A stretch of 64,000 bases of DNA from Dehalococcoidia bacterium (GCA_965262235.1 OZ253504.1:2582354-2646353); one strand, 5' to 3'; positions 1,349-46,393 are shown, numbered from the stretch's first letter. Notes: generated by a model not told the origin, from the sequence alone. Numbers and translations: made by a program.

Positions 1349-2548
1349 TCAGATCACGCCGGCGCCCGACAGCTCCTCGAGCTGATCGGCGCTGAGGCCG
1401 AGCTCTGCGCTCAGCACGTCGTGGGTGTGCTCGCCGAGCAGGGGGGCGCGCTGGTGGACGGCGGGTGACTCTGAGAGCCTGATCGGGCAGCCGAGCAGCG
1501 TCATCGGACCGCGATCGGGGTGCTCGATATCGACTAGCATCCCGCGCTCGCGCATGTGCTCGTTGTTGAAGACCTCCCCGCTGTCGAGCACTGGTCCGGT
1601 CGGCACGCCGGCTGCGCCGAGGATCTCCATCACCTCGAACTTGGTGTGCTGCAGCGTCCAGGCTTCAATCGCCTCGCGCAGGTCGGCGCTGCCGTCGCGC
1701 GAGAAGCTGCGTGGGTCGTGCGATTCGAGCAGGTCATTGCGACCGATCGCCCCGAGCAGCGCAGCCCACATGCGACCGTTCGCGACTACCACCCAGACCC
1801 AGTCACAGCGAGCGCCCGGCTTGCAGGGGAACAGACCGGTCGGAGACGTTTGACCGTCGCCGTAGGGCGGCACCGGGTCGCCGAACACTTCGCGACGCGT
1901 CATTGGGACGCGCGTGTAGTTCGTCACCGCTTCCTGCATCGAGAGCTCGACCTGTTGGCCCACCCCGTCGCGCTGACGCTGCCAGAGCGCCGCCAGCATG
2001 CCGATTGCGGCCTGCACGCCCGTGCCGGTGTCGCCCATCGTCGGCCCCGGTTTGAGCGGCAGCGTGTCCGCGGTCCCGGTCAACGACATCGCGCCGCCGG
2101 TCGCCTGCGCGATCATGTCGAACGACTTCGTGTGGGCCCACGGCCCGGTCGTTCCGAAGCCCTTGACGGTGCAGTAGATCAGCTGGGGGTGCAGCTCCTT
2201 GAGCACGTCGTAGCCGACTCCCAGCCGTTCCATCGTGCCCAGCGTGAAGTTCTCCACCACGATGTCGAAGTTCGGCACGAGTCGCAGGAACAGCTCGCGA
2301 CCGGCGTCCGACTTGAGGTCGATCGTGACCGATTTCTTGTTGTTGTTGAGCGTGATGAAGTAGGTCGAGTCGACGCCGTCGTCACCGCGCAGCCCCCGCC
2401 CCGGTTCGCCGCGTCCGGGCGGCTCGACCTTCACAATGTCCGCCCCCAGCCAGCCCAACGCCTGCGTCGAGGAGGTCCCCGCCTCGTATTGCGTCAGGTC
2501 AAGAATCCGAACATCCGCCAGCGCACGGTCCATCAGCAGCTCCTTCAA
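1349..2548 (-). CDS. family III CoA-transferase (CaiB/BaiF)
   Basis: N-terminus VRILDLTQYEAGTSSTQALGWLGADIVKVEPPGRGE matches the CaiB/BaiF signature; 399 aa. Confidence 0.85.
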   Translation of the reverse strand: MKELLMDRALADVRILDLTQYEAGTSSTQALGWLGADIVKVEPPGRGEPGRGLRGDDGVDSTYFITLNNNKKSVTIDLKSDAGRELFLRLVPNFDIVVENFTLGTMERLGVGYDVLKELHPQLIYCTVKGFGTTGPWAHTKSFDMIAQATGGAMSLTGTADTLPLKPGPTMGDTGTGVQAAIGMLAALWQRQRDGVGQQVELSMQEAVTNYTRVPMTRREVFGDPVPPYGDGQTSPTGLFPCKPGARCDWVWVVVANGRMWAALLGAIGRNDLLESHDPRSFSRDGSADLREAIEAWTLQHTKFEVMEILGAAGVPTGPVLDSGEVFNNEHMRERGMLVDIEHPDRGPMTLLGCPIRLSESPAVHQRAPLLGEHTHDVLSAELGLSADQLEELSGAGVI

Positions 2549-2587
2549 GTGGTTTAATCGAGGGTAGCGATCCCGAGCGGGCGAGCG

Positions 2588-2785
2588 TCAGTCGCTGACC
2601 TCTTCGAAGGAGAAAGACCGGACGCCGATGCGCTCGCTGGCGTGTTCGAGGGTGATCGCGCAGAGTCGGCCGCCGGAGTCGAACTCAAGCAGCGTTTGCT
2701 CGTCAAGGTCGCGGGATTCCTCAATCGGCTCGGCGCACAGCTCGAGGTAGAGCGTGTCCGTGTCGGCGAAGTAAGTGACCTTCAT
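2588..2785 (-). CDS. DUF2283 domain protein
   Basis: MKVTYFADTDTLYLEL... matches the DUF2283 N-terminus. Start trimmed to the internal Met at 2785 (ORF track extends to 2905). Lies 20 bp downstream of the MTase gene on the same strand. Confidence 0.55.
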   Translation of the reverse strand: MKVTYFADTDTLYLELCAEPIEESRDLDEQTLLEFDSGGRLCAITLEHASERIGVRSFSFEEVSD

Positions 2786-2804
2786 GGCGTGGAATTCGTT
2801 GGCG

Positions 2805-5732
2805 TCAGATGACGAGCTTCGCGCCTGGGGGCCGCGCTTTGCCGCCATGCACGGAGGGTTCGGCGCACCACTTGGCGGCAAGTCGGCGCACTCCTTCGTA
2901 GACATCCTCGTCGAAGCCGAGCAGGTCGCAGATGACTCGCCGGTCGAGCAAGGCGCGATTGGGGTCGGCGTCCGCGAGGTAGGCGGGCTCGAGTTCTAGT
3001 TCGCGGAACTCATCGAAGATCGCTTCGGCATTGAAGAGCTGGATTGCGTTCAGCGAAGTCAGGTCGAGTATAGGCAAGTTGTGCATTGTCTTGACAGTCA
3101 TATCACCTCTCCCTGCCTGTGAGCGATTCGAGTGCCACCAATAGAGGAGCAGACCAAGGGTGCAATTTCCCCACAACGCAAAAGCGCAGTCATATGTATC
3201 GTTATCGAAGATGACGTTCGGCCAGGCACGACCTCCGGCGGCTTTTGTCTCGGTCATGGCCACTGCCAGAGGTTGAGAAGTGAACCGAAATCCCCGGCTA
3301 ACGTGTGAGCGGCTCACTGATTCCCACCGGTTAGATGCATTCAACTCCATGCCTGGTCGCACGATGAACTGCGAATCTGGGTGGCAGAGTATTTTGGTTT
3401 CCCGTTGAGCATTGTGTGTCCACAACGCAGGATAAGTCGCGGTCGGACTTGCAGAGGCTCGTTTGAACGGACCCTTGTGCGCGGTACTAATAAAGAGCTG
3501 AGAGTCGAGACCTCGACGGCCGATCTTGCCGAGAGCCGAAATTGCTAGTTCTGTGGGGTAGGCGTTCGGTGGGAGCCATAGCTTCCCATCGGAGAGCGAA
3601 GCGGCGATCTGGCCCACGGCTGCATCCGAGAGCCGCGCGGCTCCCCATCCAGCGTCAGAGTGAGGTGCCGGAGCGTCCAGAGTCTCTCCCACATGTTCGT
3701 CACCGATGGAGACAATCGTTCCCCCAAATGGTCCGCCTTCGACCTTTCGGATGGATTCATGGCGCGAAAGGGCCATCGCCATCCCGCTCGCATCGGCAAG
3801 GTTTCGGGGACGTCCGAGAATTGACGTGAACTTGCCGCGCGAGTCGGCGTCGCTCGGTACACGTTTCGCAGGTCGCTTTCTGGCGATGACCAGGCATTCG
3901 GCCACCCCGGTATCGTTGGAGAACGACAGGGCATGGTCCTCGCCCTCCGCGATGGTTAAGATCGTCAAGTCTTCATACTCCGCTGCGAGTAATGTCCGCA
4001 CTTTCTTCCAAGAAGACGCGTTGACCATTGATGCAAGCAGCACAAAAGCCATTACTCCTCCCTTCTTCAGCTTTCGATGTGCTATAGAGACGAATGCCGA
4101 TCCCAGGCCCGCGTGACCGTGATACGTAGTGCCTTTCGCCAGCTTCTTCACCTCAGCAGCCATGTCCGCTTGGTCTGCTTCAGTGGCGTTGAATGCGGCG
4201 AAAGCGGCGTTCAAGACCGCGTCGCCTGCATCAAAGTGCTTGGTATTACTGGTGAACGGCGGATTCATGATGACCAGATCGAAGCCGATGTCCGGAATGT
4301 CAACGGTCACCTGCGCCGCGGTCTCCTCTCCCGCACTGCCGGTGCGGAGGGCAGGATCGCTGGTGTTGAAGAGCGTTAACAGGTGCGATTCCTTTAGCAG
4401 CTCCAGCGAGCCGACCTGTACGCCGCCGTCTTCCTGGCGTCCGTAGGGCATCGTGTAGAGGCGCGACTGTTGATAGTCGATGTTGGGCTGCCCGCCGGCC
4501 AGAGTTGCGCCGGTGATGTGCACCGCCGAGGGCATCACGTCGCAGCCGTAGAGGACTTGCTCCATCATCGGGGCGTGGAGCTTGGCGGGATCGCCGCCGG
4601 CGCGTTCGTGACGGGCGGCGATCTGGTCGTAGACGGCGGAGAGCAACGCGCCGGTGCCACAGGCGAAATCGCCTACGCGGAGTTTGCCGATGGCGTCCGC
4701 ATCGGACCAGTCGATGTCTTGCAGTTTGGCGACCGCGAGGCGGGCCAGCAGCGCCGCGGAGGCAGGGCGGGTGTAGAACGTGGCGAGGTACTTCCGGTCG
4801 GCGATCAGGCGCTGGAAGATGCGGCCCGTGAGGTCATGCGCGTTGTCGATTCCGGCCGCGTCTATCTCTTGGGCGGTCTCGCGCAGTGCGGCGAGGATGT
4901 GCGCGGCCGCGCCGGACGGCAGTTGCTCGACGATGTCCTTGGCGATGGCGAAGATGGGGAAATAGTTGATCGCGAGGATCTGGTCCCAGGCGGAGAGTGT
5001 TTCTTCCTGCGGGTTGGCGACGCCGGGGCCGCAGACCATGTGGAGCGGTTTGACGCCCTCGTGCATGCCGGCGATTCGTTCGTGGAAGACAAGCGCGTTG
5101 GCGATGATGGCGCAGGCCATGCGGCGGGTCTGCGGCACGTTGCGCATGCCGAGCAGATCGGCGACGGCGCGCACGATTCCGCGCTGGGTGTCGCTCATCT
5201 CATCGAGCACGCTGGCGGCGCGCTCGATCCCCGCCTGGAGGGAATCGGCGGCCCGGTTCACTTCCTTCTGCGGCATCGAGACGAGCCGGATCAGGTCGGC
5301 GAGGTCCTCGATTCCACCGTCCAGCCAACCTGATTCGGGGAAGCGGATGCGCCGCTCGTCCTTGTCGAACTCGTCGTAGAGCACGCACCAAGAGAGGCGC
5401 GTCTGCTGCAGGGCCTCGTTCAGGTCAGCTGCGGTGCGCAGCGGGGTGGGATAGCGCAGCGCGATCGCCGCTTCGATGGCTCGCGACTCACCGATGACAA
5501 TCCTGCCCAGCCGGTCGGCGGCTTCTTGCTCGGCGGTGTAGGCGGGCATGAACTCCGCTTCGACGACGACGGGTGATCGGCCGGGCGCGGTGATCAGGTT
5601 GTCGAGCTGCCAGGCAGGATGTCCGACGATCAGCTGGGTGTGCTCGGAGCGAACGAGGCAGGCCCCCACCATCCGTTTCAGCAGACCGCCCAATGCGGTG
5701 TTGACGCTCGGCTCCGTCTGTTGGGAGGGCAT
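2805..5732 (-). CDS. large N6-adenine DNA methyltransferase-domain protein, Type IIG/IIL (MmeI-like) or PglX-like
   Basis: Gamma-class MTase motif I DFACGTGALL and motif IV NPPF about 140 aa downstream. 975 aa with about 340 aa N-terminal to the MTase core and about 450 aa C-terminal (TRD-like). The C-terminal half (about 3000-4100) is markedly AT-richer than the flanks. Confidence 0.75.
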   Translation of the reverse strand: MPSQQTEPSVNTALGGLLKRMVGACLVRSEHTQLIVGHPAWQLDNLITAPGRSPVVVEAEFMPAYTAEQEAADRLGRIVIGESRAIEAAIALRYPTPLRTAADLNEALQQTRLSWCVLYDEFDKDERRIRFPESGWLDGGIEDLADLIRLVSMPQKEVNRAADSLQAGIERAASVLDEMSDTQRGIVRAVADLLGMRNVPQTRRMACAIIANALVFHERIAGMHEGVKPLHMVCGPGVANPQEETLSAWDQILAINYFPIFAIAKDIVEQLPSGAAAHILAALRETAQEIDAAGIDNAHDLTGRIFQRLIADRKYLATFYTRPASAALLARLAVAKLQDIDWSDADAIGKLRVGDFACGTGALLSAVYDQIAARHERAGGDPAKLHAPMMEQVLYGCDVMPSAVHITGATLAGGQPNIDYQQSRLYTMPYGRQEDGGVQVGSLELLKESHLLTLFNTSDPALRTGSAGEETAAQVTVDIPDIGFDLVIMNPPFTSNTKHFDAGDAVLNAAFAAFNATEADQADMAAEVKKLAKGTTYHGHAGLGSAFVSIAHRKLKKGGVMAFVLLASMVNASSWKKVRTLLAAEYEDLTILTIAEGEDHALSFSNDTGVAECLVIARKRPAKRVPSDADSRGKFTSILGRPRNLADASGMAMALSRHESIRKVEGGPFGGTIVSIGDEHVGETLDAPAPHSDAGWGAARLSDAAVGQIAASLSDGKLWLPPNAYPTELAISALGKIGRRGLDSQLFISTAHKGPFKRASASPTATYPALWTHNAQRETKILCHPDSQFIVRPGMELNASNRWESVSRSHVSRGFRFTSQPLAVAMTETKAAGGRAWPNVIFDNDTYDCAFALWGNCTLGLLLYWWHSNRSQAGRGDMTVKTMHNLPILDLTSLNAIQLFNAEAIFDEFRELELEPAYLADADPNRALLDRRVICDLLGFDEDVYEGVRRLAAKWCAEPSVHGGKARPPGAKLVI

Positions 5733-7204: not shown

Positions 7205-9457
7205 TTAGTGGGCGATCACGATCACGCCGCTTCGTTCTAGGGTGGCGAGTTCGTCGGCTCTTGAGATTCCGCTGAGGATTTCGTCGGCGTTGGAGCCGAG
7301 GATGGGGGCGGGCTGGCCGGGGACTACGGGGGTGCGGCTGAGGATCGCGGCGGGGCCGTTGGTGCGGATCTTGCCGCGGCCTTCGTGGTCTCTGGTGATC
7401 GAGAGGCCGCGGGACTGCGCCCAATCGCTCTCCATCGCCTCATCGACGGTGATCACTTCGGCGACGCCGATTCCCGCGCCGCGGAAGTGTTCGAGCCAGT
7501 GACTGACGGGATGGGCGCGAATGCGCCACTCGAGCTCCGCCTGCAGGCGATCACCTGCAGAGGCGACACCGCTGAGGCCGGGAACGCCCTCCAGCGCGGG
7601 GATGTCTCGCTCGCTCGCGCCGAGGAAGATCCAGCCGTCGGCGGCTTCGTAGAGGCGCTGCAGCGGGCCTTCGCCGAGCGCGCTCTGTCCGCGCGGCTCG
7701 GTCCAGGTCTTGCCCTCGTAGCCCTGCAGGAGCGACGACTGGAGGGTGCCCGCGGTGCGCGCCAGCGCGGTGTAGATCTCCTGCCCCTGACCGGTCCGCT
7801 CGCGGTGATAGAGCGCCATGCCCACGCCGAACGCGCCCATGATGCCGGTGCCGTAGTCGTTGATCGGGAACGGCTGGAGGGTCGGCGGATCGTCGCCGCC
7901 GTAGCGCGTCTGCATGCCCGTGGCGGCCTGCGCGAGCTGCTCCCAGCCGGCGCGCTCGGCCCACGGGCCGATCTCGCCGAAGGCGTTCAACGACGCGTAG
8001 ACGATGCCAGGGTGGCGCGCCGCGACATCTGCGTAGCCGATACCGAGTCGCTCGACGGCGCCCTTGCGGTAGTTCTGGACGACCACATCGGCGCCGGCGA
8101 CGAGGTTGTTGAAGATGTCGATTCCCGCCGTGGACTTGAGATCGAGCATGATGCTGCGCTTACCGCGGTTGACATCTTCGTGGAATCCGCCGCCCTCGCG
8201 TTTGGGGTCGTCGATCTTGATCACGTCAGCGCCGAACTCGGCCAGGGTTCGTCCGCAGGTCGGGCCGGCGAGGATGATGCAAAGGTCGATCGCGCGCATG
8301 CCCTCGAGCGCCTTCGAGAGTCGCGGTACGCCCTGGTAGGGCGCCGGCGGCTGCGCGGCAGCGACGCTCTCGAGGATCGCTTCGCGGTCGGCGTCGGGAG
8401 CGCGCTGTGCGTGGCCCGGCGCTCCGGGCGTGCGCGACATCCGCACCTGGATGCCCGGCTGCAGCATGGGGCCGAGGTCGGGGTCGTCGATCTCCACGAC
8501 CGCCTCCGACTGACGTGCATGTTCCTCGTGCAGCCACTCGGCGCTGTCGAGGCAGCGAACCGTCGGCGGGCCGGCCGCGTTGATCAGTTCTTCCCACTCC
8601 ATCGCAGGGCGCGTCTTGAAGATCTCGCTGAGGCGGCGGCGCGCCTCCGCCGCGAGTTCCGGTGAGCCGGCGAGCTGTGCCGATTGCGACCAGGGCTCGT
8701 CGAGCCACTCGGGGACGCCGGCGGCCTCACAGAACTGGCGCACGAAGTATGAGAACGCCGCATGGAAGAAGACCCAGCGCCCATCGGCGCACTCGTAGGC
8801 CGCGACCCACGGCATCTGTCGGCGCGTCGTGTCCTGTCCGATCACGCGCAGACCGGAGACGCCGACCGCCTGATAGATCGCGTCGTGCAGCGGCGACTCG
8901 ATGCGCTGGCCGAGCCCATCGCGCTCGCGTGCGACGAGCGCCATCGCGGTCGCCGTCACGCCGACGAACGCGCCGTAGACGGAGGCGATCGGGATCGCGG
9001 TGTAGATCGGCCGTGTCGAGGGCGTCCCGCCGAGCCGGGCGAAATATGTGCCCACGCCAGCGGAAACGACGCCCTCCCAAGCGGCGATGTCGCGCCGCTC
9101 GTCGCGCGCGCTGAAGCCGGGCATCGAGAGATAGATCAACCGGTCGTCGCGCGTGGTCATCTGCTCCGCGCCGAGGCCCAGGCGGTCCATCACGCCGGGG
9201 CGGAAGTTCTCGATCACGACATCGGCCGAGGCGATCAACTGCTCGGCGGTGCGCCGGTCGGCGCCCTGCTTGAGATCGAGGGCGATGCGCGACTTGCCGC
9301 GGTTCCAGATGGCGTTGGCGGGCGTGTCCCACGCGGGACCGCCGCGCGGGTCGACGCGAATCACCTCGGCGCCCTGGTCGGCGAGCAGCATGCCGGCGAG
9401 CGGCCCGGGGACCCACTGCCCAAAGTCGATTACGCGGAGTCCATCGAGCGCGCCCAT
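7205..9457 (-). CDS. tandem two-domain family III CoA-transferase (CaiB/BaiF x2 fusion)
   Basis: Two CaiB-type N-terminal signatures: LRVIDFGQWVPGPLAGMLLADQGAEVIRVDP and MRAIDLCIILAGPTCGRTLAEFGADVIKIDDP; 750 aa. Confidence 0.8.
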   Translation of the reverse strand: MGALDGLRVIDFGQWVPGPLAGMLLADQGAEVIRVDPRGGPAWDTPANAIWNRGKSRIALDLKQGADRRTAEQLIASADVVIENFRPGVMDRLGLGAEQMTTRDDRLIYLSMPGFSARDERRDIAAWEGVVSAGVGTYFARLGGTPSTRPIYTAIPIASVYGAFVGVTATAMALVARERDGLGQRIESPLHDAIYQAVGVSGLRVIGQDTTRRQMPWVAAYECADGRWVFFHAAFSYFVRQFCEAAGVPEWLDEPWSQSAQLAGSPELAAEARRRLSEIFKTRPAMEWEELINAAGPPTVRCLDSAEWLHEEHARQSEAVVEIDDPDLGPMLQPGIQVRMSRTPGAPGHAQRAPDADREAILESVAAAQPPAPYQGVPRLSKALEGMRAIDLCIILAGPTCGRTLAEFGADVIKIDDPKREGGGFHEDVNRGKRSIMLDLKSTAGIDIFNNLVAGADVVVQNYRKGAVERLGIGYADVAARHPGIVYASLNAFGEIGPWAERAGWEQLAQAATGMQTRYGGDDPPTLQPFPINDYGTGIMGAFGVGMALYHRERTGQGQEIYTALARTAGTLQSSLLQGYEGKTWTEPRGQSALGEGPLQRLYEAADGWIFLGASERDIPALEGVPGLSGVASAGDRLQAELEWRIRAHPVSHWLEHFRGAGIGVAEVITVDEAMESDWAQSRGLSITRDHEGRGKIRTNGPAAILSRTPVVPGQPAPILGSNADEILSGISRADELATLERSGVIVIAH

Positions 9458-9520
9458 CGGTGCCTCCTCTGCTGCGTGTGTGGGCGCAGGGTAGCTAGGC
9501 GCCGCGGGCGAGTTGCCTCG

Positions 9521-10120
9521 CTACCCGCTCAGCAACGCATCGGCCGCTTCGTCTATCACGGCGATGAATTCGGCTGGCGAGCGATCGTTGTGCAGGACCA
9601 GATTCGCTTTGGGCGCGCGTTCCTGCCAGGGCGTGGCCGACGCCCAGCGTTGCTCGGCCTCGGGGCGGGTGAGATCGTTGCGCGCCATCAGGCGCTGCAG
9701 CGCGGTCTCGGCGTCGCACGCGACGAGCCAGCCGGCGTCGCAGATCTGCATGTAGGGGCCCTCAAAGAGCCGCACGGCTTCGAAGACCGCGAGCGGCTGC
9801 GTGGCGTCGCGCAGCTCCGCGAGCAGGCGCATGAACTCGCCCTCGATGTCGCCGATCGCGGTGCGCAGTGCGGCGAGTCGCTCGGCGTTGCCGAAGACCA
9901 GCGCGCCGAGTGCCTTGCGGTCGATCGCGCCGCTCGCGGCGGTGACCTGCTCGCCGAACTCGGCGACGATCCGGCCGTGCGCGTCGGTACCGGGCTCATA
10001 CATCGCGTGGACGTAGCGGTCGGCGTCGAGGTGCGATGCGCCCCAGCGGTCAACCAGGCGTTGGCAGAGCAACGATTTCCCGGCAGCGATGGCGCCGGTG
10101 ACCCCGAGGACGATGGCCAT
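9521..10120 (-). CDS. coaE: dephospho-CoA kinase
   Basis: MAIVLGVTGAIAAGKS P-loop start and CoaE-like length. Start trimmed to the internal Met (track ORF extends to 10156). Confidence 0.8.
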   Translation of the reverse strand: MAIVLGVTGAIAAGKSLLCQRLVDRWGASHLDADRYVHAMYEPGTDAHGRIVAEFGEQVTAASGAIDRKALGALVFGNAERLAALRTAIGDIEGEFMRLLAELRDATQPLAVFEAVRLFEGPYMQICDAGWLVACDAETALQRLMARNDLTRPEAEQRWASATPWQERAPKANLVLHNDRSPAEFIAVIDEAADALLSG

Positions 10121-10188
10121 GATGATGCCCCTCGTGGCGGGAATAGTAGGGTACAAGAAATACGCGTTGTGATCGGCAATCCGGCTGC

Positions 10189-10686
10189 GTGGAGTGCGGG
10201 ATGAGTGAGTTCGAGCCGTCAGACGACGTGCCGTCGGGCACGCATGTGGCGCTGCCGATCGCCGAAGCTCACGTGAATGCCAATCTCGACTCGATCGATG
10301 CGATCGATTCGAAGGCGATGTTTCTCATCGGTCTGAATGTGGCGGGCGTCGGGATCTACGTCAGCGCTGTGGTAGCGCTCGGCTGGGGACTGGAGTGCAC
10401 GATCGCGCCCATCGCGTTCTTCCTCATCGCGACAGGCATCGGAATGTGGAGCGTGTGGCGCCTGAAGATTGCGCAGTTCCCATCGCCCGCTTCGATCATC
10501 GCGCTGCTGGGGGAGCACCTGAGCGACGAGCAGGTGGCGTGGGTCTTGCTCCATGGCATCGCCGAGGCGTCTCGCATGATCGAGCCGGTGCTCGAGCGCA
10601 AAGCGAGGCTCACGTTGGTCCTGCTGGTGCTTACCGTGAGCCACTCGGTAGCGATCGCGGGTAGCGCCGCTATCTGCGCCGGTTAG
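10189..10686 (+). CDS. hypothetical membrane protein
   Basis: 165-aa ORF with 3-4 hydrophobic helices (IGLNVAGVGIYVSAVVALGW..., IAFFLIATGIGMWSV..., LTLVLLVLTVSHSVAIAG). Confidence 0.4.
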   Translation: MECGMSEFEPSDDVPSGTHVALPIAEAHVNANLDSIDAIDSKAMFLIGLNVAGVGIYVSAVVALGWGLECTIAPIAFFLIATGIGMWSVWRLKIAQFPSPASIIALLGEHLSDEQVAWVLLHGIAEASRMIEPVLERKARLTLVLLVLTVSHSVAIAGSAAICAG

Positions 10687-11686: not shown

Positions 11687-11704
11687 GCGGACAAACGACG
11701 GGAA

Positions 11705-13005: not shown

Positions 13006-13021
13006 GTCAGGAGGGTTGAGC

Positions 13022-17662: not shown

Positions 17663-17681
17663 TCCTCCGCCCCCTCGTTGA

Positions 17682-18116: not shown

Positions 18117-18167
18117 CTCGTCCTCTTCCGCGCTGCTGCTCGTTGGGGCGTTTGCAAAGACTACTGA

Positions 18168-21127: not shown

Positions 21128-21137
21128 TTTCGTCCGT

Positions 21138-24709: not shown

Positions 24710-24730
24710 GGACTCAAGTGTACCGACGGT

Positions 24731-37401: not shown

Positions 37402-39544
37402 CTAATGCAGGTGTCGAGCGTCTTCGTTCATCGAGCGACGGTCGGTCTGTTGCTCGCGATCCTGACGCTTGTGTTGTCGGGTTCGTTGGCGCGGGCGCAG
37501 GATCCTCCGCTGGGGGTGGAGGTGCTGTAGGGCGGTTGAGGTTGGGCTGGGACACCGCTTCGGGCAAGATTGGACGCTGGTCTCGCCGCAACGGCGCATC
37601 CTCGCCGCGGACACGCCCGCCGACGCCTGGCGCGTGAGTTCGGCGGTCGGCGTGCCGATTAGCCCGACGCACGTGCGGATTACGATCGAGAATCGAGGCG
37701 CCTGGACCGACGCGCGCAGTGCGGGCGAATTCGTCGCGCAGATCAACCAGGTGCGTCAGTGCAGCCGCTGCGGCTGGTTGAGGCTGCAGCTGAGCGATGA
37801 TCGGCTCGAGCTCCAGACCTACTCGGACGACTGCACCCACCTGACCGCGATCGGCGCTACGGACATCGCGAATCCCATGAGCGAAGGACGGCAGGAGCTG
37901 CGCGTCGCGGCGCGCCGCCTGGCAGGCGGCGGGATCGAACTGGGACTCCAGCGCCGCGCCGAGTCCGGCTGGGACGCTCTCCAGCAGCCGGAGGATTCGA
38001 TCGTCCCCGCCGATCTCACGGTCGGCGTCTGGTATGCCACATCGCCGATCTCGCTGCCGCCGCCGCCGGCCAGCGTGGAAGCCGACCTGCGTCGCGGCGC
38101 ATCGATCGAGAGGGTCGGAGATGAGCTGCAGGTCAGCGTCGACGGCACGACCTACCGCACCAACTGCGGAGAGCTCCAGCTTCGTTCGTTCCGGACGACA
38201 CTGCTGTTGGACACGCGCGACGAGCAGTGCGATCGGTCGGTCGCGCTCGCCACGGTCTGTGCCTCGGCGGACGTGGGCCGCGACTGCGGCGTCCAACGGA
38301 CCCAGGCGTATCGCTGGGAGACGCGCCAGGAGCGCACCGCGAGGTTCGGGCACATACCGCTCACGGAGACGGAGACGGAGACGGAGACGGAGGACGTTGT
38401 CGACGCGATATTCGCCGACTACTTCGCGTCGGGGCGACGCGCTCCGAGAGTGGTCGCCTGGAGCGGTGATACCGCCCACTTCGACGGCGCCAAGAACCAG
38501 ATCGTTCTCTCCGAGAGCAGTTTTGCGTTCGACACCGTCGCACATGAGATGAGTCACGCGCTGCTGTCGGCTGCGCGGATTCGGAATCCCGGCCACGACG
38601 GCTCGCACACCGCGCTGATCATGGAATTTTGGGGGCGCTACGTACTGCTGATTGATGTTTCTGAGGCGCGAGCTGACGCGCGCGCGAGCGATCTCGATGT
38701 CGCCGAGCGACCGCGTCCGGCCCCGCGAGGCGACGCTGGCATCGTGGCGGTGCGAGACATTCTCTGCGCTGAGTCCGTGACGTCGGACGCGCTCTGCCGC
38801 GCCTTCGATGGGCAGATGTCAGTGCTCGGCGCGCAGGCGACCACTGACCTATACCTCGGCAGTGGGAGGCGCGGTGACGATTTGTCGTGGACGACGGGCG
38901 TTGATTCCCAGACGAGCGGCATGTGGACCTCTATCAGGCAGGACGCTGCAGTCGTGGGGGCGTCGGACGCGCGGGCGCTATTTCGGGTCAGATGCACCAC
39001 CGCAGACGAACTTGATCTCCGTGTTTGGTGGTCCGGCGTTCCCGACCTCAATGGTGAGGTGACCTACCAAATCGGAGAACTTCAGGCCGTCGACGCTCGC
39101 TGGCTCACCGGCAGCGGCAGCGGGCCGGGCGGACCGTGGCTGTATCACCAGGCGCCGGGTCCTATGGGCATTGCGCGCGCGTTCAGCTGGGCCGCCCGTT
39201 CAGGCGGAGAGCTGAGCTTCAGCTTCGAGCTCTACGGGCGGATTTATTCAACCACGTTCGATCTCGATGCGATCTTCAACACACCGGCGCAACCGAATCT
39301 CGCGCAGTGTGGGTCGCTCGCGGAGCCGCCGGCGCTCGGTGAACCGGTCACGGGGTTTTGTCGGTACGGCCCGCATTTCTGGTGGAACACGCAGCTGAAC
39401 TCCGAGACGGGCGCGCTGCTCACCGCTGTGGTCCGCGAGACGGCAGTCGAGGGAGCGGATGCGGCGCTCGCGCGCCTCCGGGTCGTATGTGTGTACGACG
39501 ACACGCTGGCTGTGACCTGTGGTGGCGTGGCGTTCCGGAACTGA
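37402..39544 (+). pseudogene. secreted HExxH-motif protein gene with an apparent frameshift after the signal peptide
   Basis: 37402-37530 encodes a signal peptide (MQVSSVFVHRATVGLLLAILTLVLSGSLARAQDPPLGVEVL*) ending in a stop. The 691-aa ORF (37469-39544) continues in the +1 frame. A G5 run at 37512-37516 is the likely indel site. Body contains FAFDTVAHEMSHALL (HExxH). Confidence 0.45.
38363..38392. repeat. (ACGGAG)x5 hexanucleotide microsatellite encoding (TE)5
   Basis: Five perfect tandem ACGGAG copies inside the HExxH ORF. Confidence 0.9.
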
Positions 39545-39843: not shown

Positions 39844-41091
39844 ATGCATTTGATGTACTTCACCGAGCAACCGATGTCGGCCTATGACGAGGCGTCGGCT
39901 GAGGAGGGCGTGACGGCGCTGCTGTTCCCCAACTCCAACTTCGACTCGGAGGCGGGCAGCCGCCTCTACCGCGACCGCCTGACCGAATACCAGTTCGCCG
40001 AGGAGGTCGGGGTCGACGGGATCATGCTGAACGAGCATCACAACGCGCCGTTCTGCATGCAGGCGAAGTGCAACATCTGGGCTGCCGTGCTCGCCGGCGC
40101 GACCGAACGGGTGAAGATCGTGCTGCTCGGCAACCCGCTGCCGCTGGCCGACAACCCGATCCGGCTCGCCGAAGAGCTCGCGATGATCGACATGATCTCG
40201 CAGGGCCGGCTCGTCTCGGGCTTCGTCCGCGGCGGCGGTTCCGAGCAACTCGCGACCGGCGTCAACCCGGCCTACAACCGCGAACGCTTCGAGGAGGCCC
40301 ACGACCTGATCGTCGAGGCCTGGACGCGGCCCGGTCCGTTCCGCTGGGAGGGCAACCACTACCAGCACCGCGTGGTCAATCCCTGGGCGACGCCGATGCA
40401 GCAGCCGCATCCGCGGATCTGGATTCCCGGTGTGCTCTCGCGCGAGACGGTGGTCTGGGCGGCCAAGCACCGCTACCCCTACATCGCGCTGAACACCACG
40501 ATCGAGGCGACCAAGCGGATCTGGCAGACCTACGACGAATCGGCGCACGAGGTTGGCTACGACCCGGGCCCCGAGAACCGCGGGTACCTGCTGCGCGTGC
40601 ACGTCGCGGACACGACCGAAAAGGCGATCGAGAACGCGTCGCAGTTCATGTGGATGCAGGGTGAGTTCACCGGCCTCGCGCATCCGGTCTGGAGCAACCC
40701 GGCCGGCTACGCCTCGCCGCGCAACCGCGAGGCGTTGGTCGAGGTGATGAACGGGCGCCGCCCGCCGCCGCGCGCGAGCACCTTCGAGAACCAGATCGAA
40801 AACATGCAGATCATCGCCGGCACGCCCGACGAGTGCATCGCCAAGCTGCGGATCATCCTCGAAGCGACGCGGCCCGGCATCCTCGCGCTGTGGGGCAACG
40901 ACGGCCGCGTGACGCATGAGGACTCGATGCGCTGCATCGAGCTGCTCGGCACCGAAGTCATGCCCGCCGTCCGCGAAATCGGCGCCGAGCTGGACCTCGA
41001 CGGGCCGTTCGACTCCGAGCCGCCGGTCAGCATCCGCTACGACGAAGCCGCTCAGGCGCGAGTCGCGGCGGGCGCAGCGGCCGGCGACTAA
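39844..41091 (+). CDS. LLM-class flavin-dependent oxidoreductase (luciferase-like monooxygenase)
   Basis: MHLMYFTEQP start, TIM-barrel LLM pattern, 415 aa. Confidence 0.85.
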   Translation: MHLMYFTEQPMSAYDEASAEEGVTALLFPNSNFDSEAGSRLYRDRLTEYQFAEEVGVDGIMLNEHHNAPFCMQAKCNIWAAVLAGATERVKIVLLGNPLPLADNPIRLAEELAMIDMISQGRLVSGFVRGGGSEQLATGVNPAYNRERFEEAHDLIVEAWTRPGPFRWEGNHYQHRVVNPWATPMQQPHPRIWIPGVLSRETVVWAAKHRYPYIALNTTIEATKRIWQTYDESAHEVGYDPGPENRGYLLRVHVADTTEKAIENASQFMWMQGEFTGLAHPVWSNPAGYASPRNREALVEVMNGRRPPPRASTFENQIENMQIIAGTPDECIAKLRIILEATRPGILALWGNDGRVTHEDSMRCIELLGTEVMPAVREIGAELDLDGPFDSEPPVSIRYDEAAQARVAAGAAAGD

Positions 41092-41136: not shown

Positions 41137-41913
41137 ATGGCAACCATCGACATTCTGCTGCACGGCTACTCGTTCGGGACCGACTCGGGCACGCCGGCGT
41201 TTTGCAGCGTCATCCTGGTCGAGTCCGAGGGGCGTCGGGTGCTGGTCGACACGGCGCACGTCGGCCGTCGGGTCCAGCTCCAGGAGGCGCTCGCTGCGCG
41301 CGGCCTGACCGCCGACGACATCGACGTGATCCTGATGACGCACGCGCACTGGGACCACGTGCAGAACTTCGACGCGTTCCCGAACACGCCGATGGCGATC
41401 CACCCGTGGGAGCGCAAGTACGCCAGCGATCCGCACGTCAACGACTGGGCCACGCCCAAGTGGACCGGCGCGGCGATCGAGACGCACACGCTGCAGGAAG
41501 TCAGCGAGGGCGACGAGTTGGCCAAGGGCGTCACAGTGATCGATCTGCCGGGTCACTCGCCCGGCAGCATCGGCCTGCTGGTCGAGACCGAGGCGGGTCT
41601 TGCGGGCCTGACCGGCGATGCGATGCACACCGCGGCGGCCGGGATCGCGGGGCGCAGCCCGCTGGTCTTCTACAACGAGACGCAGGCCAACGACAGCATC
41701 GCCAAGATCGTCTCCGCAGCCGAGTTGCTCTACCCGGGCCACGACCAGCCGTTCCGGATCGTCGATGGCGCGCCGGTCTACATCGAGCCGTTCAAGCTGA
41801 CGCTCTCGGGCGTACAGCCACAGATGGAGGGGCTCACCTTCGCGCCGCCGCCGGCGGGTCCGATCGTGCCCTGGATCATGCCGGGCATCGGGGATCAGCC
41901 GACGTACGACTAA
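41137..41913 (+). CDS. MBL-fold metallo-hydrolase
   Basis: THAHWDH metal-binding motif and DLPGHSPG. Confidence 0.8.
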   Translation: MATIDILLHGYSFGTDSGTPAFCSVILVESEGRRVLVDTAHVGRRVQLQEALAARGLTADDIDVILMTHAHWDHVQNFDAFPNTPMAIHPWERKYASDPHVNDWATPKWTGAAIETHTLQEVSEGDELAKGVTVIDLPGHSPGSIGLLVETEAGLAGLTGDAMHTAAAGIAGRSPLVFYNETQANDSIAKIVSAAELLYPGHDQPFRIVDGAPVYIEPFKLTLSGVQPQMEGLTFAPPPAGPIVPWIMPGIGDQPTYD

Positions 41914-41926: not shown

Positions 41927-42811
41927 GTGCGCATCGCGCGAATCGGCGGCCGTCGGGTCGCGTATGAAACGTATGGCGACCCGCGCGGCCAACCCGTCCT
42001 GATCATTCACGGCGCCTGGGGCGGGCCGTCGTCCAGCCTGTGGAACGGGCCGCGCCTGCGTTGGTCAGCGCCCACCGATGGTCTGCGCCTGATCTGGTAC
42101 GACCGCCGGTGCGCCGGTCTCTCGCAGTACGACACGCAGCCGTTCGCACTCGAGGACCTGGCATACGATGCCGTCGAGGTTCTCGACTACCTGCAGATTG
42201 AACGGGCCGCGGTCATCGCGACTTCCGCAGGTGGTCCGATCGGCATGAGATTGGCGCTCGGTCATCCGGACCGGGTCTCAGCCCTGGTGCTGCTCAACAC
42301 GGGCGCGGCGTTGATGTCGTTGAATCCAACGGGAGTCAATCTCGACGACCCGTTCGTCGCTGATCGGCTCGAGACGGTCGCCAGGCGCATCGGGCTGTTG
42401 AAACTCATGGAATCCAAGGGCGTCGAGGCGGCGATTCAGCAATCCGAAGAGGAGTGGCGAACGCCGCCGGAGCCGGAGAGCGCGGATCCAGAGCTGGCTG
42501 CGTTTCGAGCGAATCGTCTGCGTGCCCTGAGCCGGTTGTCGCAAAGCGAGCTGGTGCGGCTGGGGCGAGGAGCCTTGCTGAACATGCAGGCGCAGCGGGG
42601 CATTGACCTTGCTGATCGACTGCACGGGATCAACTGTCCGACTCTGATCGTCCACGGAGATGCCGACACGACCGTGCCCATCGACTTCGGACGCGCCACG
42701 GCTGAGCGGATCTCAGGAGCCGAACTCGCCATTCTCCATGCCGCTGGCCACGGTCTGATCGCTCATGCCCAAGCGCAGTCCATGCTGGCAAAGTGGTTGT
42801 TGGGAGTCTAG
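41927..42811 (+). CDS. alpha/beta hydrolase
   Basis: VLIIHGAWGG, ATSAGG nucleophile elbow, C-terminal HGDADTTVP...AGH. Confidence 0.75.
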   Translation: MRIARIGGRRVAYETYGDPRGQPVLIIHGAWGGPSSSLWNGPRLRWSAPTDGLRLIWYDRRCAGLSQYDTQPFALEDLAYDAVEVLDYLQIERAAVIATSAGGPIGMRLALGHPDRVSALVLLNTGAALMSLNPTGVNLDDPFVADRLETVARRIGLLKLMESKGVEAAIQQSEEEWRTPPEPESADPELAAFRANRLRALSRLSQSELVRLGRGALLNMQAQRGIDLADRLHGINCPTLIVHGDADTTVPIDFGRATAERISGAELAILHAAGHGLIAHAQAQSMLAKWLLGV

Positions 42812-42820: not shown

Positions 42821-43039
42821 ATGACCACGACAGAGCCCAGTCCGGCAACCTCGCAGATCAGCGAACGCGCCCGCCAGCGCGGAGTCGAGTTGTGGAGCGG
42901 CGAAGAACTGGTCGACATGCTGGACAAGATCTGCGAAGGCATGACTCAGGAAGAGCGCGAAGCGCTGGCCGACGAATTGGACCCCAAATGGCGCGACGAT
43001 GGCGGGCCTGAGTGGCGAACGGCGGACGATTTCAGTTGA
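42821..43039 (+). CDS. small hypothetical protein, possible antitoxin of the downstream PIN gene
   Basis: 72-aa acidic ORF immediately upstream of and overlapping the PIN gene. Confidence 0.35.
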   Translation: MTTTEPSPATSQISERARQRGVELWSGEELVDMLDKICEGMTQEEREALADELDPKWRDDGGPEWRTADDFS

Positions 43040-43481
43040 TACCAATGTGCTCAGCGCCATAGTGGGGCGGAGCGATGTCGGGGGCGCCTACCGAGATTTG
43101 TTGCGAAACTTCAGCGCGGTGGTGACGTATTTTGTGCGCGCTGAAATACAGGTGATCGACTGGCGACCAGCGGCATGGGACATCCTTGCAGTCTTTCTCA
43201 AAGATGATAATGCGTTTGACCCGCCAGGCTATGATGTGATCGAAGAGTATGTGCAGCTCAAACGGACAGCCATTGCGCTTGGCTTGCGCTATGGCGCAGA
43301 GCGGGAAGATCTCTGGATGCTGGCCCAGACTCGTAGCGTACAGCTGCCGGTGATGACTCACGATCGCAACGCCGCTCGCGTAGCACGGGCGGTTGGAATG
43401 CCAGTGGTGACCGCGTTATCCGACATCGAGGCGGACTACGCCCGTGATCGCGGGAGATTGGCGAGAACTCGATCGCGCTAA
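42999..43481 (+). CDS. PIN-domain ribonuclease (VapC-like toxin)
   Basis: ISVDTNVLSAIV N-terminus and EDLWMLAQTRSVQLPVMTHDRNAARVA C-terminus. Paralogous to the PIN ORF at 555-1043. Confidence 0.6.
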   Translation: MAGLSGERRTISVDTNVLSAIVGRSDVGGAYRDLLRNFSAVVTYFVRAEIQVIDWRPAAWDILAVFLKDDNAFDPPGYDVIEEYVQLKRTAIALGLRYGAEREDLWMLAQTRSVQLPVMTHDRNAARVARAVGMPVVTALSDIEADYARDRGRLARTRSR

Positions 43482-43518: not shown

Positions 43519-43866
43519 TCACTCTTCCTCAATCTCGATATCAGACCAGTCGTAAGCGTAGACCTGCGTGACCATTCCGCGCCACCAATGATCATTTTCC
43601 AGATTCAGCTGCATGCCTTCGGGCGCAAAACCCGCGCTGGGGCGCATTGTCGCCTTGCTCACCGCAATCGCAGGAAGCCATGGTCGCTGGTGTTTGCGAC
43701 AGACTTCGTCGCGGATGTAGCCCAACGGTAGGTTTACTCCTGGCGGGAACAGGCCGGTTGCATCCGCTAGCTCCTGATACGTGATTGTACGCATGTCTTG
43801 CGCGCGCTGCTTTAGTATCGCGAGCACTCTGTCGGTCTTGGCTGGAACTCTTACACGTTCGCTCAT
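43519..43866 (-). CDS. hypothetical protein with MGMT-like/winged-helix DNA-binding-type segment (no catalytic Cys)
   Basis: TITYQELADATGLFP...LGYIRDEVCRKHQRPWLPAIAVS resembles the Ogt/Ada C-terminal DNA-binding region but lacks PCHR. 4-bp overlap with the upstream CoA-transferase gene. Confidence 0.35.
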   Translation of the reverse strand: MSERVRVPAKTDRVLAILKQRAQDMRTITYQELADATGLFPPGVNLPLGYIRDEVCRKHQRPWLPAIAVSKATMRPSAGFAPEGMQLNLENDHWWRGMVTQVYAYDWSDIEIEEE

Positions 43867-45119
43867 GACAGCTCCGACAACACCTCGGCGGTGTGCTCGC
43901 CGAGCAGTGGTGGGCGCCTTGTGATTCCCCAGCTTCCCTTGGTGAGCTGATAGGGGGCGCCTGGATAGATCACTTCGCGACCCAGCTCCGGGTGTTCCAC
44001 CTTGACCTGCATGCCGCGGTCGACGAAGTGCGGGTCTTCGAGCGCCTCCTCGGGGCTGTGAATCACGCCGACCTGGAAGCCGAGGTTCTGGGCTTTGGTG
44101 AAGAACTCGTAGGCGCTGAGTTTCGACGCCAGCAGGTCGAAGGCCTGTCGGCCGGCGCCGAAGATCGCGAGCAGTTCCTCGTTGTTGCTGTTGAAGACAT
44201 CCGCCAGGGAGAACGATTCCAGCCCGGCGCCAACCTGCAGGAGCGCCGCTTCGGGAAGTTCATCCAGGAGGCCTTCCTCTTCCAACCAGCGGTAGACGAT
44301 GCCGAACTCGGCTGGGCGACGAGCCGGGATGCCGGTGTTGACGTAGCGACCGTCGGCACACTTGATCTGCGATGGCATCGACGGTGCGACGCCGGCGTGA
44401 CGGCCAGTCTGCCGTTGCACGGTCGCATGTGCGACCAACCATGAGTACGAACCGGATTCGGTCGTCACGTTGACGGATGCGTTGATATTGACGTTGATGT
44501 GCTGGCCGAGACCCGTGAGATCGCGATGTAGCAACGCTGTCAGAATCGACATAAAGGCGTAGTTTGAGCCCGTGTGATACGCCTGCTGTCCGCCGCCGCG
44601 CACCGGTGGCAACGAGTGATCGTCGTACCCGTTCATCCAGGTGAAGCCGCCGTTGGCGGCCAGTGTCAGGTCCGTGTGAGGCTCGTCGTCCCTCACCGAC
44701 CCGAAGCCGAAATTGGTGATCGTGCACCAGATCAACTTTGGGTTGTCGGACATCAGCTGATCAAACGACAGACCCAGGCGACCAACCGGATCGTATGTAG
44801 CGGTGTCGAAGATCACGTCGGCTGACTGCACCAGCTTGACGAATGCGTCGGCGTTGGACTGGTCGTCGAAGTCCATCACGATGCTGCGCTTGGACGTGTT
44901 GTAGTACCAGAAGAACAGCGATCGCTCACTGTCCGGTTCGTCGTCGACGAACGGTTCATACTGCCGCGACGGGTCGCCTTCCGGCGGCTCGATCTTGATC
45001 ACGTCGGCGCCCATGTCGGCCATCAGCTTGCCGCACCAGGCGCCGCGCTCATCACCGATCTCGAGCACGCGAAGGTCGTCGAGGGCCATCATCGCCAGGG
45101 GATTTGAGCTGGTTGTCAT
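43863..45119 (-). CDS. family III CoA-transferase (CaiB/BaiF)
   Basis: LRVLEIGDERGAWCGKLMADMGADVIKIEPPEGDP; 418 aa. Confidence 0.85.
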   Translation of the reverse strand: MTTSSNPLAMMALDDLRVLEIGDERGAWCGKLMADMGADVIKIEPPEGDPSRQYEPFVDDEPDSERSLFFWYYNTSKRSIVMDFDDQSNADAFVKLVQSADVIFDTATYDPVGRLGLSFDQLMSDNPKLIWCTITNFGFGSVRDDEPHTDLTLAANGGFTWMNGYDDHSLPPVRGGGQQAYHTGSNYAFMSILTALLHRDLTGLGQHINVNINASVNVTTESGSYSWLVAHATVQRQTGRHAGVAPSMPSQIKCADGRYVNTGIPARRPAEFGIVYRWLEEEGLLDELPEAALLQVGAGLESFSLADVFNSNNEELLAIFGAGRQAFDLLASKLSAYEFFTKAQNLGFQVGVIHSPEEALEDPHFVDRGMQVKVEHPELGREVIYPGAPYQLTKGSWGITRRPPLLGEHTAEVLSELS

Positions 45120-46393
45120 TAGATCACGCCCTCTTCGTGGAGCCCGGCGATCTCGTCCGGGCTCAAGCCCAACAGCTCGCCGTAGACGTAGTCGTTGTCC
45201 TCACCCAGCACGGCCGCGCCTCGCGTCATCGACCAATCCGTCTTCGACAGGTGCGCGGGGATGCCGTCGACACGGACGCGTCCCATCTCCGCCTGTCTGA
45301 TCGTCGGCCAGAGGCGGGCCTCGGCGGAGTTCGGGTCCTGGTCGATCCGTTGTTCCGGCGTCTGCACGGGATTGGCCGGCACGCCGGCGGCGCGCAGCAG
45401 CTCCGTCGATTCGAAGGGGTCGCGACGCAGACACCACTCAGCGATGTTCGCGTCGAGCTGATCCTGCGCCGCCACGCGTCCCGAGAGCTGGCCGTAGCAA
45501 TCGTCAGCAGCCCAACCACAACCGTCGGCGGCCAGCACGTCGCGCATCGCGTGCCAGTCCACGTCGTTGCGGCAGGCGATTGCGATCCAGGCCTCGTCGA
45601 ACGATCCGGGAATCGGCATGGCCGCGTAGATGTTGTGCGGGGCCATCGCCGGATGCAGCGAGTGATTGGCGTCGGGATAGCCATCGCGGCGCAGCGGTCG
45701 ACCATTGACGGTGTAGTCCAGGAGCACCGGACCGTTCAACGTGATCGCTGCTTCGGTTGCCGCGACATCGACGTACTGCCCCTCGCCGGTGCGATTGCGA
45801 TGGTGGATCGCCAGCATGATCGCCATCGCCATGAAGTAGGAGCCGGTGTGGTCCATGTAGGAGTAGCCCCAGCCGGCCGGCGGCTGATCGGGAAGCGCCG
45901 AGGACATCGTCAGCCCGCTGGTCGCCTGAACGATTGGTCCCCATGTCTTGAACTTCTCGTACGGGCCGGAGTGACCGAAGCCGCAGTTGGAGACATAGAT
46001 GATGTCTTCCCTGATCTGCTTGAGCTGCTCGTAGTCGTAACCCCATGAGCGCATCACGCCGGAGGAGAAGTTCTCGGTCACGCAGTCGGAGATGGCGACC
46101 AGCCGCTCGAATAGCTCGCGCCCCTTTTCGGTCTTGATGTTCAGCGAGACCCCGAGCTTGCCCACGTTGTGGTTGTTGAACGGTCCGCCCAGCTCGGGGC
46201 CGCGCCGGTCGTCCACATAGGGCGGCATCCCACGCAGGATGTCCCAGCGGCCGTGGTTGGAGGGGTCCTCGATGCGGATCACCTCGGCACCGAAGGCGGC
46301 CATGAATTTGGTCGCGCCAGCGCCGGCGAGCTGCCCGGTGAAATCGCAGATGCGCAGGTGCCCGAGGGCGCCGCGTCCGCCTGGTCGCCTCAT
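45119..46393 (-). CDS. family III CoA-transferase (CaiB/BaiF)
   Basis: LRICDFTGQLAGAGATKFMAAFGAEVIRIEDPSNHG; 424 aa; 1-bp overlap with the downstream paralog. Confidence 0.85.
   Translation of the reverse strand: MRRPGGRGALGHLRICDFTGQLAGAGATKFMAAFGAEVIRIEDPSNHGRWDILRGMPPYVDDRRGPELGGPFNNHNVGKLGVSLNIKTEKGRELFERLVAISDCVTENFSSGVMRSWGYDYEQLKQIREDIIYVSNCGFGHSGPYEKFKTWGPIVQATSGLTMSSALPDQPPAGWGYSYMDHTGSYFMAMAIMLAIHHRNRTGEGQYVDVAATEAAITLNGPVLLDYTVNGRPLRRDGYPDANHSLHPAMAPHNIYAAMPIPGSFDEAWIAIACRNDVDWHAMRDVLAADGCGWAADDCYGQLSGRVAAQDQLDANIAEWCLRRDPFESTELLRAAGVPANPVQTPEQRIDQDPNSAEARLWPTIRQAEMGRVRVDGIPAHLSKTDWSMTRGAAVLGEDNDYVYGELLGLSPDEIAGLHEEGVI

Follow-up and report, generated by a model that had tools for sequence, protein, structure and literature searches.

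Fused and split forms of predicted asymmetric family III CoA-transferases in a 45-kb region of an uncultured Chloroflexota bacterium

The window analyzed here, a stretch of 64,000 nucleotides from a Dehalococcoidia bacterium (GCA_965262235.1, OZ253504.1:2582354-2646353), carries six genes for family III (CaiB/BaiF) coenzyme A (CoA) transferases between positions 1349 and 46393. These genes are designated CT1 to CT6, and the loci of relatives are designated L001 and L084-L091. The GC content of the window is high (61-71% in 2-kb bins), and its genes are packed very tightly, many of them 0-60 bp apart. A Pfam scan of all plausible open reading frames (ORFs) in the window matched all six genes to PF02515 (CoA_transf_3) at 212-609 bits, compared with a gathering score of 23.3 bits, which confirms the genes that a first-pass annotation of the sequence had placed at these positions. 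CT1 (1349-2548, minus strand; 352 bits) encodes a single-domain, Frc/YfdW-like protein with the catalytic Asp173 at codon 2030-2032. CT2 (7205-9457, minus strand; 533 bits in two stretches; 750 aa), CT3 (14241-16808, minus strand; 609 bits in two stretches; 855 aa) and CT4 (27470-29881, plus strand; 532 bits in two stretches; 803 aa) are tandem two-domain fusions, a feature absent from the first-pass annotation, and the six genes hold nine CoA_transf_3 domains. Although the Pfam ORF of CT4 begins at 27359, the start at 27470 is supported by orthologues with a length of exactly 803 aa. CT5 (43863-45119, minus strand; 212 bits) and CT6 (45119-46393, minus strand; 288 bits) are single-domain genes, and the CT5 start overlaps the CT6 stop by 1 nt. 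When the six proteins were searched against the window with tblastn, no further copy was found beyond a CT1-like 3´ remnant of 32 codons at 1043-1138 (minus strand; 78% amino acid identity to CT1 residues 368-399), in agreement with the remnant reported earlier near 1040-1147. An exact look-up of CT3 found no identical record.

The nine domains were aligned together, with the alignment anchored on solved structures. The position of the catalytic Asp (D169 in Frc, D178 in BbsF) is occupied by Asp in five of the nine domains, namely CT1 D173, CT2 D534, CT3 D610, CT4 D555 and CT6 D181. The remaining four domains, which are the N-terminal halves of CT2, CT3 and CT4 together with CT5, lack the residue; a catalytic Asp is not present in every protomer, but each of the five enzymes still has one Asp-bearing half or chain. 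In CT2, the N-half (8333-9457, minus strand) carries Ala158/Ser159 at the site, and the C-half (7205-8332, minus strand), which is the most divergent paralog, carries Asp534 (codon 7856-7858). The BbsE-like N-half of CT3 (15564-16808, minus strand) has Ala166 in place of Asp, and its BbsF/SUGCT-like C-half (14241-15563, minus strand) has Asp610 (codon 14979-14981). In the alignment, the Ala of the CT3 N-half falls opposite Asp in 4ed9 and 10uh and opposite Ala in BbsE. CT4 combines an Asp-less N-half with Ala165 (27470-28594, plus strand) and a BbsF-like C-half with an invariant Asp555 (28595-29881, plus strand; codon 29132-29134). CT5 is a BbsE-like, Asp-less subunit. CT6 is a BbsF-like catalytic subunit, and its Asp181 aligns to Asp178 of BbsF, to which the title of PDB entry 9fol assigns the CoA adduct.

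This Asp pattern extends well beyond the window. Among 121 aligned fused sequences, made up of CT2, CT3, CT4 and 118 CT3 homologues, all 121 have Asp in the C-half and only two have it in the N-half. D555 is invariant across 105 sequences aligned to CT4, and the CT4 N-half has 11 invariant positions in the same sequences although it is Asp-less. The CT5 site is occupied by Gly or Ala, followed by Tyr/Trp or similar, in all 118 homologues, none of which has Asp. Because the pattern is kept across these 121 fused, 105 CT4-aligned and 118 CT5-related sequences, it is not a local accident. Homologues are abundant (more than 1300 for CT3 and 617 for CT4), and among the 120 listed for each, nearly all are 750-890 aa long.

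The closest solved relatives divide along the same line. In PDB searches, CT5 matched BbsE (9fn0_A) at 172 bits and BbsF at 82 bits, whereas CT6 matched BbsF (9fn0_B) at 168 bits and BbsE at 87 bits. CT5 and CT6 are thus reciprocal best relatives of the two BbsEF subunits and share the BbsEF arrangement of an E subunit without Asp and an F subunit with Asp. The CT3 N-half had 9fn0_A (BbsE) as its best match (E=4.5e-40); the CT3 C-half had 4ed9 and 9fn0_B, and the CT4 C-half likewise had 4ed9 and BbsF (9fn0_B at 213 bits). CT1 was closest to YfdW (234 bits) and Frc (211 bits). The CT2 C-half is an outlier, with SUGCT at 128 bits and the Far/AMACR racemases at approximately 113-115 bits. An AlphaFold2 model of CT4, built from 105 sequences, is predicted as a confident single rigid body (pLDDT 92.9, pTM 0.95). 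Foldseek placed the BbsF chains first for this model, with a target-normalized TM-score of 0.94, and BbsE at 0.89, with each chain covering approximately half of the model; TM-scores of 0.84-0.95 to solved family III chains indicate a predicted family III fold. No two-domain PDB chain was found among the sequence or fold matches in the PDB searches.

None of the six genes reached the cutoff of the NCBIfam equivalogs for Frc, YfdE-type, CaiB, Mct, succinyl-CoA:mesaconate or succinate-glutarate transferases. With the formyl-CoA transferase models (NF003809 and TIGR03253), CT1 scored 350 (cutoff 442) and 330 (cutoff 504), and the other CT proteins scored lower per domain. The best PDB matches, YfdW/Frc or BbsE/BbsF, also set the paralogs apart from alpha-methylacyl-CoA racemase (AMACR), to which they might all have been close: for CT1, CT3, CT4 and CT5, the scores of racemase chains fell far short of those of Frc, Bbs and SUGCT chains; for CT6, no racemase was listed, and only for the CT2 C-half were the scores comparable. 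A racemase reading of the CT2 C-half was considered and rejected. Compared with the M. tuberculosis MCR sequence, the CT2 C-half appears to have no His at the racemase catalytic His position.

As judged from sequence, the six genes encode four BbsEF-like asymmetric enzymes, three fused and one split (CT6/CT5), in addition to the Frc/YfdW-like CT1. They resemble BbsEF-type and Frc-type CoA-transferases and appear to lie outside every characterized orthologue group. CT1 is presumably an ordinary Frc/YfdW-like homodimer, and each pair of the asymmetric enzymes would have a single Asp-bearing site, not two.

Within the same genomes, CT6 is more conserved than CT5 (83% versus 72% in L089 and 65% versus 56% in L090), a difference that would be consistent with a looser constraint on the non-catalytic half.

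The six genes fall into five transcription units on both strands. CT1 forms the first unit, downstream of an Eco57I-like restriction-modification gene and in lower-GC DNA, and CT2 forms the second, following coaE. CT3 closes a tight MFS-VOC-patatin-CT3 operon, CT4 is separated by 5 bp from the PF07826 IMP-cyclohydrolase-like gene that precedes it, and CT6 followed by CT5 constitutes the fifth unit with its 1-nt overlap. Between these units are Tag, an operon of enoyl-CoA hydratase (ECH), GNAT and glutaredoxin/FAD-oxidoreductase genes, and an operon of carboxylase alpha, Xaa-Pro peptidase, DPP-IV and DnaJ-flavin-reductase genes; PepN, RNase T, MOSC, RmuC, Uma2, PIN, restriction-modification and toxin-antitoxin genes are also found there. 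The CoA-ester neighbors named in the first-pass annotation are all present: a biotin carboxylase/BCCP alpha subunit (24731-26695, minus strand), ECH (11705-12508), an MCE-like VOC protein (17682-18167, minus strand; 66 bits compared with an NCBIfam cutoff of 115), SDRs (46517-47290 and 61941-62759), LLM oxidoreductases (39844-41091 and 59035-60087) and an acyl-CoA synthetase (49779-51368). The last of these falls outside the stated 45-kb span.

The whole block, including its unrelated genes, is kept in L001 (CT3 orthologue 93% identical), L084 (CT4 94%), L085 (CT4 67%; a 2.44-Mb circular contig) and L089 (CT5 72%). At 53-55% identity (L086 and L088) the synteny is gone; one of these contexts contains an alpha/beta hydrolase and a P450, and the other contains a second fused transferase along with APH, DUF6285 and acyl-CoA dehydrogenases. 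Conserved synteny, which had been put forward as a check on a functional cluster, is therefore real down to 67% CT4 identity, but it covers unrelated genes equally, and for this reason it reflects the chromosome backbone rather than selection on a pathway. The CT4 orthologues, most of which come from long-read metagenome assemblies, form a series of 94, 83, 70, 67, 60, 55 and 52% identity, and named Chloroflexi/Chloroflexota metagenome-assembled genomes contain CT4 relatives at 65-68% and a CT5 relative at 89%. At the phylum level, these matches assign the window to an uncultured Chloroflexota bacterium.

The relatives show several local rearrangements. In L085, CT4 alone is inverted relative to its neighbors (10001-13152; 22344-22412), and the gene after patatin encodes a 400-aa single-domain protein with an N-terminus like the CT3 N-half. 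This protein may be a split form of a CT3-like gene, and fusion or fission of the two halves seems to vary within the lineage. In L088 (10001-16230), two fused two-domain CoA-transferases lie 1.4 kb apart with APH and DUF6285 between them and with acyl-CoA dehydrogenases and TetR regulators adjoining. The same APH-DUF6285 pair occurs near the fused gene in L086, which suggests a recurrent association with the fused transferase.

Two neighbors with an apparent link to the transferases were traced in relatives. The PF07826 gene upstream of CT4 (26718-27464, plus strand) scored 46 compared with a PurO equivalog cutoff of 150, and it is separated by 22 bp from the divergently transcribed carboxylase alpha gene. 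In L087 (60% identity; 8010-9910), the PF07826 gene directly follows a purH that contains only the AICAR-formyltransferase part. The PurO-like neighbor is probably a housekeeping gene of purine synthesis, a bacterial PurO-type cyclohydrolase, and a functional link between CT4 and the cyclohydrolase was rejected in view of the L087 arrangement and the inversion of CT4 in L085. The carboxylase alpha gene, which has an MCC-type BT domain, heads an operon (20351-26695, minus strand) with an Xaa-Pro aminopeptidase, DPP-IV and a DnaJ-flavin reductase fusion, and this combination is kept in L084 and L085. A link between carboxylase alpha and CT3 or CT4 was also rejected: the operon of the alpha gene contains two peptidases, and no beta subunit lies in its vicinity. 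A contig search with carboxylase alpha returned only matches of ≤49% identity, from many phyla, which informed neither taxonomy nor synteny.

Around the transferases, no more than two small local modules are plausible. The setting of the CT6/CT5 pair comprises an LLM monooxygenase (39844-41091, plus strand; 415 aa), an MBL-fold hydrolase (41137-41913, plus strand) and an alpha/beta hydrolase (41927-42811, plus strand), all assigned by Pfam, and these genes flank CT6/CT5 in L089 and L085 as in the window. An LLM with 48% identity to the 39844-41091 gene stands with an alpha/beta hydrolase beside the CT6-CT5 pair in L090, a distant Chloroflexi locus, and in the Myxococcota locus L091 the pair is accompanied by LLMs and hydrolases. 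The pair itself is kept in L089, L090 and L091, always with overlapping stop and start codons. In this first module, the LLM monooxygenase would act first, followed by the MBL-fold or alpha/beta hydrolase and then by CT6/CT5. In SAR202 genomes, flavin monooxygenases and hydrolases are proposed to make carboxylates that CoA-transferases activate (PMC5395668), and the position of CT6/CT5 beside LLMs and hydrolases fits this scheme.

The second candidate module would comprise an MFS importer, a patatin-like esterase, CT3 and the MCE-like VOC protein. Upstream of CT3, the MFS transporter (18168-19502, minus strand) and the patatin-like hydrolase (16805-17662, minus strand), both identified by Pfam, form with the VOC gene an apparent operon (16805-19502, minus strand) with gaps of 0, 19 and -4 bp. 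The MFS-VOC-patatin-CT3 order is the same in L001, L084 and L085 and is conserved only within the lineage. A metagenome scan with a CT3 alignment provided a background of neighbor frequencies; among the matches listed, the relatives were 26-37% identical. Among the 80 metagenomic loci listed, the transferases had ECH as a neighbor in 20%, acyl-CoA dehydrogenase in 10%, SDR in 8% and carboxyltransferase in 6%, whereas patatin was found in 0%. Distant CT3 homologues directly follow a carboxyltransferase beta gene. Coupling within either module is inferred.

Taken together, the region is best read as a conserved backbone of a Chloroflexota lineage that, like those of the SAR202 type, keeps many anciently diverged family III CoA-transferases, the six genes encoding five separate enzymes and not one pathway; we assign this reading a probability of roughly 0.7. 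Each enzyme would most likely take CoA off a donor thioester and pass it, without ATP, to another carboxylic acid, which is probably dicarboxylic. The nearest characterized relatives point to a donor such as succinyl-CoA. The chemistry would pass through an aspartyl mixed anhydride and then an aspartyl-CoA thioester, and an Asp-less BbsE-like half would pair with a BbsF-like Asp-bearing half to form a pseudo-heterodimer. Dicarboxylate CoA shuttling, one of the roles raised in the first-pass annotation, is reasonable in this light, because the closest characterized enzymes all shuttle CoA between dicarboxylates, but it does not make the region one pathway.

Several points weigh against this interpretation. 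Five independent loci occur in 45 kb compared with approximately 0.5 expected from the SAR202 figures, which corresponds to P~2e-4 per window in a Poisson estimate, and a selective or mechanistic reason for the co-location is possible. The LLMs of L091 are 310 and 334 aa long compared with 415 aa for the LLM in the window, and they may belong to a different subfamily. The module hypotheses draw on few gene neighborhoods, and the substrates and donors proposed for all of the transferases are guesses by analogy. The nine domains in 45 kb compare with five domains in 1.55 Mb of unrelated bacterial loci, and SAR202 single-cell genomes hold 73 genes in roughly 6 Mb, or ~12 genes per Mb by our arithmetic (PMC5395668). 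The 45-kb region is a genuine local hot spot.

The high copy density also favors treating the whole region as one CoA-ester or organic-acid pathway (a dicarboxylate shuttle, or a bile-acid-like or 3-hydroxypropionate (3HP)-bicycle-like set) in which the six transferases act together, as the first-pass annotation had proposed. The span or its surroundings contain ECH, the MCE-like VOC protein, carboxylase alpha, SDRs and acyl-CoA synthetase, relatives keep the block in synteny, and among distant homologues a CT3-like gene stands immediately after one for carboxyltransferase beta. We nevertheless consider this proposal very unlikely. The genes occupy five transcription units on both strands among peptidase, purine, CoA, DNA-repair and defense genes, carboxylase alpha shares its operon with two peptidases, and the synteny that keeps unrelated genes equally vanishes at 53-55% identity. 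The window contains no acyl-CoA dehydrogenase, thiolase, carboxyltransferase beta or CoA-ester lyase and no Mct, Mcl, Mch, malonyl-CoA reductase or bai genes. The 3HP-bicycle-like variant in particular has no enzyme of that cycle in the window, and all six genes score only 40-125 bits with the Mct model (TIGR04253), compared with a cutoff of 725. A different explanation of the density, that one ancestral gene was recently amplified by tandem duplication in this lineage and its copies diverged in place, would account for six genes of one family in 45 kb, for the duplicated CT1 3´ fragment 210 bp downstream of CT1, and for the colinear alignment of CT3 with CT4 along the two halves, which points to descent from one fused ancestor. 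The sequence distances make it extremely improbable. All domain pairs are only 23-38% identical, with the C-halves of CT3 and CT4 the closest (38%, 259 bits). CT3 shares 33% identity with CT4, but 45-47% with proteins from other Chloroflexota and Actinomycetota genomes and ~42% with a Phenylobacterium protein; each paralog is closer to relatives in other genomes and phyla than to any copy within the window. Because the paralogs are this divergent and have closer relatives elsewhere, the cluster is not a recent tandem amplification, and the "expansion" by local duplication that had been suggested does not hold. The copies predate the lineage, since orthologues of single copies hold the same positions in genomes at 67-72% identity.

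A third alternative concerns the fused proteins, some or all of which could, like DddD or PtmU4, be bifunctional or repurposed enzymes, with the N-half supplying a second function. DddD is a CoA-transferase and lyase, and PtmU4 transfers sulfur to an acyl-CoA to give a thioacid (PMC6006322, PMC5395668), so the only two characterized two-domain members have non-canonical chemistry. The N-half, moreover, is well conserved though Asp-less, with its 11 invariant positions, and no equivalog matches. BbsE is nevertheless a simpler precedent, being also Asp-less within the BbsEF succinyl-CoA:(R)-benzylsuccinate CoA-transferase, and the N-halves of CT3 and CT4 resemble it; neither ddd genes (BCCT, dddB/C) nor a thioacid cassette (a sulfur-carrier protein beside an acyl-CoA synthetase) are found nearby. 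We regard such repurposing as unlikely, and it would leave the reading as separate CoA-transferases intact for the other enzymes. Similarly unlikely is a wider proposal in which the fused proteins form a single-active-site or bifunctional family, the MFS-VOC-patatin-CT3 operon is an undescribed ATP-free route from an imported ester to an epimerized CoA thioester, and the density marks a coordinated hub for oxidized, recalcitrant organic acids.

If the reading as five separate enzymes on a conserved backbone is right, the locus is a compact, conserved case of Chloroflexota using ATP-free CoA transfer on many substrates. It would hold five distinct transferases in 45 kb, of which four are asymmetric with a single implied Asp-bearing site, in fused and split forms. 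It reveals neither a new pathway nor a new enzyme class.

Other features of the window were recorded alongside the transferases. A strongly palindromic element of ~165 bp (1181-1346) lies between the CT1 stop and the CT1-like remnant, in the region 1043-1348. It has 62-nt inverted arms and nested hairpins and contains the motif GACAAR-N5-TTGTC three times compared with 0.07 expected. The element looks like a MITE-like or REP-like insertion, or like a recombination scar that duplicated the 3´ end of the gene. Directly upstream of CT1, a 975-aa Eco57I-like restriction-modification methylase (2805-5732, minus strand) occupies DNA with a GC content of 61-63% and a third-position GC (GC3) of 0.74 compared with ~0.87 elsewhere, and was probably acquired horizontally. 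A second paralog-rich patch at 53310-60745 contains three Abhydrolase_3 esterases (53310-54239, 56681-57625 and 57696-58622), a limonene-epoxide-hydrolase/SnoaL-like protein (58630-59034), an LLM (59035-60087) and a Glyoxalase_3 VOC protein (60122-60745). Defense or toxin-antitoxin-type genes are scattered at 19604-20296, 36653-37342, 42999-43481, 51443-53130 and 54867-56593; they encode two Uma2 nucleases, a PIN protein, an M78 (IrrE-like) protein with DUF4411, and an AAA_21 (AbiEii-like) ATPase, whose 192-aa partner has no family match. A 691-aa ORF at 37469-39544 (plus strand) has coding-type GC3 and no Pfam match, and a 733-aa gene without Pfam matches occupies the same position in L084.

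Among known systems, the closest counterpart is BbsEF (9fn0, 9fol and 9fun), a two-subunit family III enzyme in which BbsF carries the Asp (D178) and BbsE has Ala at that position. The 2025 structures show this division between the two subunits. CT5 is best matched by BbsE and CT6 by BbsF, and the CT3 N-half and the CT3 and CT4 C-halves divide in the same way. In the Foldseek structural alignment, however, CT4 is only 30-34% identical to the Bbs chains, and the window contains no bbs beta-oxidation genes, thiolase, acyl-CoA dehydrogenase, glycyl-radical enzyme or benzylsuccinate synthase. Unlike BbsEF, three of the four asymmetric enzymes here have E-like and F-like halves in one chain. The order also differs between the two forms: in the split pair the F-like gene (CT6) precedes the E-like gene (CT5), whereas the fusions are reversed, with the Asp-less half first.

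DddD and PtmU4 are the only characterized two-domain members, and their conserved Asp is in the C-terminal domain (PMC6006322). CT2, CT3 and CT4 share with them the tandem CoA_transf_3 domains, a chain of ~750-855 aa and a C-terminal catalytic Asp, a likeness judged from the published description of the two proteins (PMC6006322). In contrast to these systems, the window has no DMSP-catabolic or thioacid-cassette context: the ddd setting of a BCCT transporter, dddB/C dehydrogenases and LysR is replaced by CoaE, patatin/VOC/MFS and the PurO-like gene. For CT3 and CT4, the resemblance is to BbsE and BbsF, the subunits of an enzyme named as a CoA-transferase. A tblastn search of plasmids returned no match labeled dddD, only generic "CoA transferase" labels at ≤35% identity; Cupriavidus and Burkholderia replicons had 13-21 matching places per record, and multiplicity of the family is therefore common. 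A literature search on Rv1866 and on fused or heterodimeric family III enzymes found nothing useful. CT1 shares with Frc/YfdW the single-domain architecture and an Asp (Asp173) at the catalytic position, but it scores below both NCBIfam cutoffs, has no oxalyl-CoA decarboxylase gene nearby and has a restriction-modification gene as its upstream neighbor.

At the level of the phylum, the locus resembles the SAR202 and sponge-associated Chloroflexota (Landry et al., 2017; Bayer et al., 2018), with divergent CaiB/BaiF proteins accompanied by LLM (FMNO) monooxygenases, SDRs, hydrolases and MFS transporters. Besides the FMNO monooxygenases, CaiB/BaiF is the most prominent paralog family in SAR202 genomes, and some of its members have DddD as the top hit (PMC5395668); the same enrichment is found in sponge SAR202 (PMC6306507). 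The role proposed in these papers is that many carboxylates enter the CoA pool ATP-free (PMC5395668, PMC6306507). Multiple CaiB/BaiF genes in such bacteria are an already described trait. These studies differ from the present analysis in giving genome-wide counts, without this locus, the pairing of Asp-less with Asp-bearing halves, or the local density, and the likeness drawn here is at the level of Chloroflexota. To that picture, the region adds three fused and one split asymmetric transferase, together with an Frc-like one, in a single conserved locus.

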